Positions 6,001-9,797 of a stretch of DNA of 41,435 bases are shown here, piece after piece. A program made the position numbers. Origin of the DNA: an uncultured delta proteobacterium (GTDB lineage Bacteria; Desulfobacterota; Syntrophorhabdia; Syntrophorhabdales; WCHB1-27). The stretch spans positions 1 through 41,435 of the forward strand of contig CAWEPK010000018.1 in assembly GCA_963810935.1 (NCBI GenBank). The letters run 5' to 3'. Each line of letters opens with the position of its first letter. Within the stretch, counting starts at the first letter, position 1.

Positions 6001-9000
6001 TTACATCGACCCACTCGTCTACCCGGTTGCGACCAATAAGCTATCCGCAATGGCCACCCTCGCGGCAATCGAGGAGATTATGGCGCGGCTGCCCGGCGTA
6101 CACACGACCTGCGGCCTGACGAACGTCTCTTTCGGGCTTCCCAAAAGAAAGCTCGTCAACCGGGCCTTCCTGGTCGTCGCCGTTGCCAGGGGCCTAGATT
6201 CAGCCATCCTCGACCCTACCGATAATGAGCTTTTCGGTACGCTCAAGGCTGCCCTTCTGATCAGCGGACACGACGACTACTGCATGGAGTTCATCAAGGC
6301 CTTCAGAGAAGGAAGGTTGGGATGACTTTTGCATATGGGGAGATAAATGGAAAGAAAAAACCCGCCTGAAGCAGCGCGTAAAAGCCGCCGGTCCTCCACC
6401 CTCGCCCTCGTGCCCGCCCGCCCGTCCCCCGGCCTGGCCGCCTCGCTTCGCGCTTACTACGCCACGGTCGAAGGGGCGGGCGAGGCTTACGCTGACGAGC
6501 GCATGAAACGCTGGTCGGCCGACCCTGCCGTCCGGGTGTATCGGGCAAAAAAAGGCAGTGAGACCGTCGCCCATGTAGTTTACGACCCCCGCACCAGCAT
6601 GATAGAGGAAGTCGTCGCGGCCCGCCCGGGTAAAACCGAAGCGTATATGCCGAAAGCGATCGACGCCCTCGTCGCAAAGGAAAGCCTGCTCGCCGCCGGG
6701 GGCCTGAAGACGGATATCCGGAAATACAAATGGCTGGTCGACTACGGCTTCAGGCCCGTCCGCACGTATGCGGATCAGGGCCGTTCCTTCGTTAAGATGG
6801 ACTTATCGACCGCCGTATACCTCGAGGCTGCAAAAAGCGGCAGGCCCGCGCGGCCGTACAGGCGCAAAGAACGGGTAGCCATCGAAAGGATCGCAGACAG
6901 TCAGAGCGAGGCGGAGGTCGCCGCGTCGCTCGGGCGGCTCATCGGCCGTCTCGGCGGCATCCGCAGGTTTGTCGCGCCAGGCGCGCGCGTCGTGATAAAA
7001 CCGAACGTTGTCGCTGACCACGGGATGAAGGATGGCGTGTACACGGGCGGCATCGTGACCGATATAAGGCTCGTCAGGGCGCTTATCGACCTGCTTTTGC
7101 CCGTTGCCGGCGAGGTCATCGTTGCCGAAGGGTCGTCTATCAACCGCAGCGAGACGACGAAGATGTTCGCCCATTACGGGTACGAAACGCTGGTCGAGGC
7201 CGACCCTGCACGCGTCCGCCTCGTAGACCTCAACACCGATGCGCTTGTCGAGAAACAGGTGCCTTTTGCCAAGAGGATGGCGTCGAGGAAGGTCCCGGTC
7301 ACCATCGATCGGGCCGACGTCATTATCAGCCTGCCCGTCATGAAGATCCATTTTGCGGCAGGCGTCTCCATGGCGGTCAAGAACCTGCAGGGGACGATGC
7401 CCCCGTTAGAGAAGTACATGAGCCATTTCTTCGGGCTCTGGCAAAACCTCATCAACATCCATCACCTCGTCAAGCCCGCCCTCACGATAATCGACGGCAT
7501 CACCGGGCAGGAGGATTTCGGCCCGGTCTCGGGCATACCCAAGCCCATGAACGTCCTCATAGGCGGGACGAACCCCGTCGCGGTAGATGCGACGGCCATG
7601 CGCGTCATGGGGCTCGACCCTGTATCCTCGCCTCCCGTGCTGCTTTCCTACCTTCAGGGTTTAGGGCCGATAGAGCGCGAGCGGATCGAGGTGGCCGGCA
7701 CACCTATAGAAGATGTTGCGAGCAGCTTTAAGCCGCCCGCGATCGACATTTCGAGCGGCGCCGATTTCCGCATCCACGACGGGAGCGCATGCCCCGGCTG
7801 CAGGGGATATCTCCATTTCGTGCTTACCAAGCTCAGGAGGCCTGACCCTTCCGGCGGCACGCGGTCCCTCATCGACCGGCCTTTCAGCCCGAAGGTAAAC
7901 ATTTTTCTCGGCCCGGAGATAGCCGCGCCCATCGACCCTGCGCAGACGAACGTCTTTATGGGCATCTGCCAGCAGCATAACGCGGAGTCGGGAGCGCACC
8001 TGCGCGGCTGCCCCCCGCACGCAGAGGTAATAATGAACGGCATATTCCGCCTGTTTCCCGACGTGGCGAGACCGAAATACGCAGATGAGACGGAAGAGGC
8101 GAAGCTGGAGAAAATGCTCGACGAAGTCCTTGAGATGGAGGAGTAGCGAGGAAGCCGGCGCTGGGTGTGGGGCCGGCTATCGGGAGGCGATCTGCCTGCC
8201 GATGACTGCGCCCGCCGCAACGCCCAGGGCCAGTAAGCCTATCGTTCTTCCCAGGCCGAGACCGCTCGCCGCAACGCCAAGCCTGCTTTCGATAAAAGCG
8301 AGGTGACGCCGCTCGTCTGCGTAATGCCTTTCGATCAGGACCATTATCCGGCCGGGGAAGTCCTCGTTGGCCGCCTGCCTGTACTTGTAGTTGACGTATT
8401 TCTCTCCCGTCGCGCAGGCATCCAGAATGTCGCGGTCGCTCATCGCCCCTTCCGCTGCGGTCATCCCTTCGACGAAAACGCCCCGCGGCGCCAGCGACAT
8501 GTCGGGCGGCTCACCGCCCTCCCTCCTGATCGCTTCGCCGAAGTCTCCGACGTGCCTCTCGTGGTCATGCCGGAAGCGCAGCAGGGCCTCCTGCAGGTCG
8601 TGCGCCCTTACCGATGCGGCGGCCTTGTCGTATGCGGACAGCGCGTCGTGGTCCAGCTTCATAAGGGAACTTAGTCTGTCGATCAGATCACGGCTTTCCA
8701 TGGTTACCTCCCCGACCGTCCTTGCGCTTTTCGTTTCCGAAACATAGTGCCTCCGCTGTATGAAATCAAGGAGTGGGAGGTGTGCTCCCCCGGCCTACGC
8801 ATATCAGCGGCTTGACTTTGGCGTATTTTTGACTATAATAGTACTCTTCGGAGGTGTAAGATGGCCATCGGGTTGCTCGGTAAGAAGTTGGGAATGACGC
8901 AGATTTTCGGCGAAAACGGCGTCATGATCCCCGTTACGGTTGTAAAGACAGGCCCCTGCCTGATCGTGCAGAAGAAGAGCGTCGAGAGCGACGGCTACAG

Positions 9001-9797
9001 CGCCGTGCAGGCCGGTTTCGGCGAGATCGCGAAGGTTTCCAGGGCCAACAAGCCCCGCACGGGCCATTTCAAGAAAGCAGGCCTTCCTCCGATGGTAAGG
9101 CTGAAGGAATTCAGGGTAAAGGGCGACGAACTGGACGGGTTCGAGGCGGGCAGCGAGGTGCCCATCGACCTGTTCAAGCCGGGCGATTTTGTCGATGTGA
9201 CGGGCGTCTCTATTGGAAAGGGAACCGCAGGCGTAATCAAGAGGCACAAGTTCTCGGGCGCCCCCGGAGGCCACGGGACGCACGAGTTTTTCCGCCACGG
9301 CGGATCGATAGGTAATAACACGACCCCCGGTAGGACCCTGAAAGGCCGGAAGATGGCGGGCCGCATGGGCAACCGGAAAGTCACGGTGCAGAGCCTTAAA
9401 GTTGTCGACGTACGCGGCGACACGAATCTGGTAATGATCCGCGGCGCAGTGCCGGGCCCGAGGAACGGCTACCTCATTCTGAAAAAGGCGGTCAAGAGGG
9501 CGTAAGGCTACCCCGACCATAAGCGAATACGATTTCAAAATCCCCTGCATCCCAAGGACGCAGGGGATTTTGAAATTATTGGGGCTCAGCGCCCCCTCGC
9601 CGGGCAAAGCCCGCGGAGCCTCCCCCCTTGTATCTTATATGCATGTTTTCTTACCTGCTGTCATCTGACTATACTTATCCCAGGAAGCATCAGGGTGTGA
9701 CAGGCCGATTCCCCCTTGGGACATATGATCCCGGCGCCGAGCGCGGGTCGTCACACCCCATTCCCTACAAGCTCGGACAGTTGCTTGGGCCTCATGA

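Follow-up and report, generated by a model that had tools for sequence, protein, structure and literature searches.

A stand-alone rplC gene outside the S10 cluster across Syntrophorhabdia, and a His-Glu loop type shared by the stand-alone L3 proteins examined

The window analysed here is the whole of contig C18 (41,435 nucleotides) of genome G000, from an uncultured delta proteobacterium of the anaerobic class Syntrophorhabdia. It contains an rplC gene that stands alone behind its own promoter-like sequence (Table 1). The product, ribosomal protein uL3, matches TIGR03625 over its full length (259 bits against a cut-off of 142.9; positions 1-202 of 202) and, since no other intact copy occurs in the genome, presumably serves as the L3 of the 50S subunit. 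This is an ordinary L3 gene, essential and in single copy, whose anatomy can be read directly and whose transcription we infer. Transcription probably starts near 8845-8847; as the -10 box lies 21 nt from the ATG (20-30 nt across 43 class loci), the 5' leader would be about 15 nt long. The strong hairpin 3' of the stop codon is a likely terminator, and a terminator scan of the window did not list it. No plasmid-borne close relatives were found; all 64 matches fall below 60% identity.

Table 1. Features of the rplC locus in the window
Feature	Position	Strand	Remarks
DUF2383 protein gene, divergent neighbour of rplC	8177..8701	-	context only
-35 box TTGACT	8812..8817	+	TTGAC[T/A] in the same place in 43/43 class loci
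-10 box TATAAT, spacer 16 nt	8834..8839	+	with the -35 box, 11/12 matches; TAnnnT at 16-17 nt in 43/43 loci
Shine-Dalgarno GGAGGTG in short unstructured leader	8850..8856	+	conserved across class loci
rplC, uL3, 214 aa	8861..9505	+	only intact copy in the genome
His-Glu ('HE') form of L3 loop, codons 138-151	9272..9313	+	alignment
Strong hairpin 3' of rplC stop, likely terminator	9531..9577	.	-31.8 kcal/mol
IS110 transposase, downstream of rplC	9825..10748	+	context only; other DNA in the C5 duplicate

The genome-wide survey's note on this DNA had described a conserved sigma70-type promoter ahead of rplC, and our analysis agrees at the level of sequence. A rule consisting of TTGAC, a spacer of 16-18 nt and TAnnnT, all within 70 nt of the start codon, is satisfied by 43/43 stand-alone class loci from 43 genomes. 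Random windows fit the same rule in 55 of 20,000 cases and shuffled sequences in 46 of 8,600 (a background of about 0.5% or less); it was drawn up after the loci had been viewed, so these controls speak for non-randomness and not for function. In the window's family (seven loci) the spacer is 16 nt and in the other 36 loci it is 17 nt, so that the 17-nt spacer given in the note fits the relatives and not the window, and the leader of about 25 nt given there corresponds to the distance between the -10 box and the ATG. No Rfam family for a structured leader RNA was matched at rplC. A consensus fold of the leader was empty for 27 loci, as it was for control windows, which makes this a weak test. 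One metatranscriptome was available, as contigs only, none of which covers either the promoter or the 5' half of the gene. rplC is probably transcribed on its own, the promoter being a strong one of the housekeeping kind, with no leader switch.

The S10 cluster, one of the most conserved gene orders in bacteria, lies on contig C5 of the same genome. It reads rpsL-rpsG-fusA-tuf-rpsJ-rplD-rplW-rplB and on to rplQ, and the genes other than rplC that make up the canonical operon are all present in the usual order. rplC is missing from its place between rpsJ and rplD: the rpsJ stop lies 9 nt from the rplD start, as the earlier description of a direct rpsJ-rplD junction in a tuf-rpsJ-rplD-rplW operon had it. 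The cluster also differs from the canonical operon in that no L4-responsive structured leader precedes rpsJ, which begins 26 nt after tuf, and locus L004 has no match in Rfam. The statement that L3 has been 'decoupled' from the operon therefore holds for the relocation and not as an escape from feedback of the E. coli type by L4, since 26 nt leave no room for an S10 leader. adk is likewise absent from the cluster (C5:303633-305729, where secY is followed by map) and is found on another contig (C20:30630-31265).

Beyond this locus, rplC matches occur in the genome only on C2 and C5. As the survey had cautioned, they are duplicates of the window locus, 98-99% identical, frameshifted and with the same promoter. 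They belong to a region duplicated at contig ends, with about 98% identity and frameshifts (window 4990-9590 against C2:21012-30610 and C5:365769-370334). On C5 the copy is found 52 kb upstream of rpsJ, and past the rplC stop it continues into different DNA, which suggests a close, co-binned strain variant.

The arrangement extends across the class, as had been claimed. In a sample of 96 genomes from 4 families and 26 genera, in which rplC was found in 91, rpsJ in 89 and rplD in 90, rpsJ directly adjoins rplD in 88 of the 89 genomes that hold both, as judged by coordinates. Among the 91 genomes, no rplC adjoins rplD outside the two foreign contigs described below. The gap between rpsJ and rplD is 8-14 nt in 43/43 junction loci that were read (some genomes twice). 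The deletion removed the rplC reading frame without a scar, and because the cluster lost exactly this frame, the rpsJ stop overlaps the Shine-Dalgarno sequence of rplD in most of these loci. rplC and rpsJ are 0.8 Mb apart on the same contig in G057, a one-contig genome, and 1.4 Mb apart on the same contig in G058 (three contigs), which argues that the relocation is not an artefact of assembly. The usual genes downstream of rplC in the class are queD-folE2 (34/53 loci, the earliest-branching family included); the window's family differs.

Several class loci that seemed to depart from this pattern were set aside. The canonical order on G065:C129, the one exception among the 89 genomes, is foreign, with a GC content of 0.66 against 0.39 for the contig that carries the stand-alone rplC of G065; this contig (L065) holds the only rpsJ-rplD set found in that genome and could mislead marker trees. 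On G013:C73 (L015) the canonical order belongs to a second, foreign set; its L3, at 46% identity, falls with those of Bacillota, and G013 has its own rpsJ-rplD junction beside it. The survey reported a stand-alone rplC with the promoter in all of its 30 relatives; of our own 30 best class loci, 29 show it, the exception being the canonical but foreign G013:C73. An apparent 40-residue insertion in the L3 of G070 is a stretch of N. In G084, G015 and G234 the second rplC matches are contig-end fragments, and that in G221 is another L3 type at a contig end and probably foreign. The rpsJ-rplD junction is a clean class-level marker that also flags contaminant contigs, two of which it exposed here.

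Outside the class, 125 other genomes of the host phylum were examined. rplC directly precedes rplD in 122 of the 124 that have both genes; these were read by coordinates, and 61 loci were confirmed by reading. The remaining two genomes come from a second class of the phylum, represented by nine genomes. In this class rplC is away from rplD in 9/9 genomes and rpsJ joins rplD in 6/6 operons read; rplC again follows a TTGAC-type promoter and is divergent from a gene similar to rlmE, the gene of a 23S methyltransferase (224 bits against TIGR00438, under the cut-off of 300). The L3 of locus L093 falls in the clade of this class. Among 80 named loci, through whose 72 canonical members alone phyla beyond the two sampled are covered, 8 are stand-alone, or 9 counting L133: six near the query (L133 included), L093, and the Myxococcota-labelled L121 and L148. 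All others carry rpsJ and rplD.

The phylum of L121 was sampled separately. In 91 Myxococcota-labelled genomes, 88 of which have both genes, the two are adjacent in only 8, and the stand-alone arrangement is found in the other 80. Direct reading showed the rpsJ-rplD junction in 22 genomes, and in 12/32 loci rlmE lies in tandem behind rplC. One group (L323-L327; 8 of the 91 genomes) has a canonical operon and a non-HE L3 that stands apart from other myxococcotal L3. No further stand-alone lineage appeared among the matches listed in a wider host-phylum sample (261 genomes) or in 30 more loci with L3 or L4. The rarity implied by the survey is not supported, given the second class, most of the Myxococcota-labelled sample and a published case in Myxococcus macrosporus; Myxococcota probably make up much of the 2,791 genomes that it counted with L23 and S10 within two genes of each other.

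The stand-alone L3 proteins share a form of one loop. His141, Glu142 and His146 of the window's L3 align with Ser137, Leu138 and Val142 of the E. coli protein. This loop approaches the peptidyl transferase centre (PMC7345174), and it is the one known to tune the catalytic centre of the ribosome. His141-Glu142 occurs in 88/88 distinct stand-alone L3 sequences (46 from the class, 9 from the second class and 33 Myxococcota-labelled), which represent only 3-5 independent origins, and is nearly always followed by Arg145-His146 (window numbering). Among operonic L3 it is seen in 9/138: 8/61 phylum families, one Syntrophaceae locus, 0/5 operon-keeping Myxococcota and 0/69 others. One more such family was found among 14 further phylum families with a readable motif, giving 9/75 phylum families. 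In Thermus and actinobacterial L3 the first His is shared and the Glu absent. The residue pattern hints that the His-Glu-x-x-x-His stretch could possibly be a metal site. Close to the loop, codon 154 (window 9320-9322) encodes Thr, and this position is mostly Met or Thr in the class; it matches Gln150 of E. coli L3, the PrmB methylation site.

As a proxy for the species tree we used a FastTree phylogeny of 12 other ribosomal proteins (101 rows). On this tree the stand-alone state needs 5 changes and the loop type 7. The class groups with nine operon-keeping, non-HE families (support 99), and an operon-keeping, non-HE class of Myxococcota is nested among stand-alone classes. With 63 rows of the same alignment, the approximately unbiased (AU) test rejects a single clade of stand-alone genomes (p=0.015) and a single clade of HE genomes (p=0.015), so that the stand-alone lineages are probably not one clade. 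A sister relationship of the class and the second class is not rejected (p=0.29). FastTree, with one simple model, was used to search for the constrained trees. For L3 itself, with loop residues 136-148 removed, the best tree places 25/26 HE rows together, in a search that started from an HE-constrained tree. Here the AU test rejects neither an HE clade (p=0.50) nor a stand-alone clade (p=0.37), and neither the class with its species-tree neighbours (p=0.22) nor all Myxococcota together (p=0.15). Another L3 run (105 rows) grouped the rows differently and left the backbone open. The grouping into HE and non-HE types is rejected by the species alignment (p=0.015) and permitted, though not demanded, by L3, which may or may not have moved between the stand-alone lineages.

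We favour, with a probability of roughly one in two, an origin in which an HE-type rplC copy outside the cluster was kept and the operon copy was deleted, more than once. An HE-type rplC with its own promoter would once have sat outside the cluster, either as an old paralogue or as a sideways gain from another former deltaproteobacterium. The presence of such a promoter-bearing copy would have made the operon copy dispensable, and the latter would then have been deleted in the ancestor of the class and, separately, in at least the second class and most Myxococcota. L3 supply would probably be set by promoter strength and turnover of the excess and not by a leader switch. The junction (88/89), the promoter (43/43) and the distribution of Glu142 (88/88 against 9/138) all argue for this origin, as do the nine nearest families in the 12-protein tree, which are operonic and non-HE, and the rejection of one clade by the 12 proteins (p=0.015) and not by L3 (p=0.37 and 0.50). 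In addition, the operon-keeping Myxococcota are nested among stand-alone classes, yet non-HE; rlmE lies beside rplC in two groups, divergent in the second class and in tandem in 12/32 Myxococcota loci; and rpmJ and rpsN provide a precedent by analogy (PMC8046335). On the other side, HE is found within operons (9/75 families), the L3 tree rejects no hypothesis, the origins number only 3-5, rlmE is adjacent to rplC in 0/53 class loci, and sisterhood of the class and the second class is compatible with the data (p=0.29). Nor did searches of the class, the phylum, the second class and the Myxococcota-labelled sample find a genome that has a stand-alone rplC as well as a native operonic one; two apparent two-copy genomes proved to contain contaminant contigs.

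A less probable account is that each lineage independently relocated its own rplC within the genome, by duplication and uneven loss, the HE loop being ancestral or recurrent and its link to the stand-alone state a coincidence in a small number of events. In its favour, HE-type L3 occurs in operons in 9/75 families, neighbours and orientation vary by lineage (queD-folE2, divergent rlmE, tandem rlmE) and no two-copy genome is seen; vertical descent of L3 in the class is not rejected (p=0.22), and rplJL and secY have been described in such terms (PMC8046335). Against it stand the minority loop type of all stand-alone lineages (88/88), the non-HE L3 of the nearest relatives of the class, and the adjacency of rlmE in two separate groups. 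We consider it unlikely that there was one ancient relocation, with operonic rplC later returning in some descendants by horizontal replacement or with the tree wrongly splitting true sisters. Sisterhood of the two classes is not rejected (p=0.29), their promoters look alike by eye, and the nested operon-keeping Myxococcota do carry a different L3 type; however, the 12 proteins reject a single clade that takes in every stand-alone genome (p=0.015), and many precise re-insertions between rpsJ and rplD would be required, since 122/124 other genomes of the phylum are canonical. An artefact of assembly or binning, which the 7% contamination of the genome and the near-duplicate frameshifted copies on C2 and C5 might suggest, is ruled out for practical purposes by the junction in 88/89 class genomes, the one-contig genome included, and by the clean, conserved Shine-Dalgarno overlap at it.

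The retained-copy origin can be extended, as a tentative and rather doubtful proposal, to an ancient second isoform of L3 in the former deltaproteobacteria: a His-Glu-x-x-x-His type encoded outside S10 behind its own promoter, often beside rlmE, that repeatedly displaced the operonic L3. Displacement would have taken place by deletion of the operon copy in the class, the second class and most Myxococcota, or by conversion in place in the nine HE families. If true, phyla could exchange core proteins of the 50S subunit, and in this group rplC would mislead as a phylogenetic marker.

Parts of this picture have counterparts in the literature. In the rows of Table S4 of PMC8046335 that cover Myxococcus macrosporus HW-1, the cluster is given as 'tufA rpsJ - rplD' with rplC absent, the same order as here; these rows tabulate the gap with no location, promoter or loop type, and the main text of that paper nowhere mentions 'rplC'. 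The present case differs in being from another phylum, in its conserved promoter and minimal leader, and in having queD-folE2 as the usual neighbour in the class. In the same work a route through deletion of the operon copy is described for rpmJ and rpsN, and one through fresh duplication for rplJL and secY. The pairs rpsN1/rpsN2 and rpmJ1/rpmJ2 resemble rplC in that a single ribosomal gene is lost from the cluster and a distinct isoform is found elsewhere (PMC8046335); that the outside copy is a distinct sequence type holds here too, by Glu142. The outside isoform of rpsN/rpmJ is sometimes found inside the operon (PMC8046335), as HE-type L3 is. In contrast to rplC, 35-52% of genomes have two copies of rpsN/rpmJ, and the isoforms separate in trees (PMC8046335). 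L3 also differs from these in being a large core protein of the 50S subunit. In the literature covered, which includes few subscription papers and leaves out older surveys of S10 gene order, we found no account of the rplC relocation in either class or of its link to the loop. What is new here is the HE loop type common to all stand-alone L3 examined, the rplC gap itself being already tabulated for Myxococcus.

Of particular interest is this link between the stand-alone state and the HE loop, unproven as it is as history. Should the loop type go with the stand-alone state, L3 would be inherited separately from its neighbouring genes in this group, with consequences for concatenated ribosomal-protein trees. 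Also, an essential 50S protein that is expressed alone must be balanced with its partners without shared transcription, and this balance is open to experiment in Myxococcus, a genetically tractable organism that shows the same gap.

Some minor observations concern the remainder of the window. The IS110 element downstream of rplC (window 9574-10801) has about 250 nt of non-coding DNA ahead of the transposase. C7, C10 and C20 carry near-identical copies of it (99.7-99.9%), and C8 carries one of 78% identity. REP- or MITE-like intergenic repeats of 100-260 nt lie at 10773-10929, 12630-12882 and 14875-15075 and have many copies of 80-94% identity genome-wide. The first 2,086 positions (1-2086) hold the end of a long glycine/threonine-rich protein of beta-strand type that closes with a short hydrophobic tail and then basic residues; it is spread over several overlapping frames, which suggests frameshift errors. 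At the other contig end, 38454-41435 carries 5S and partial 23S rRNA genes on the minus strand.
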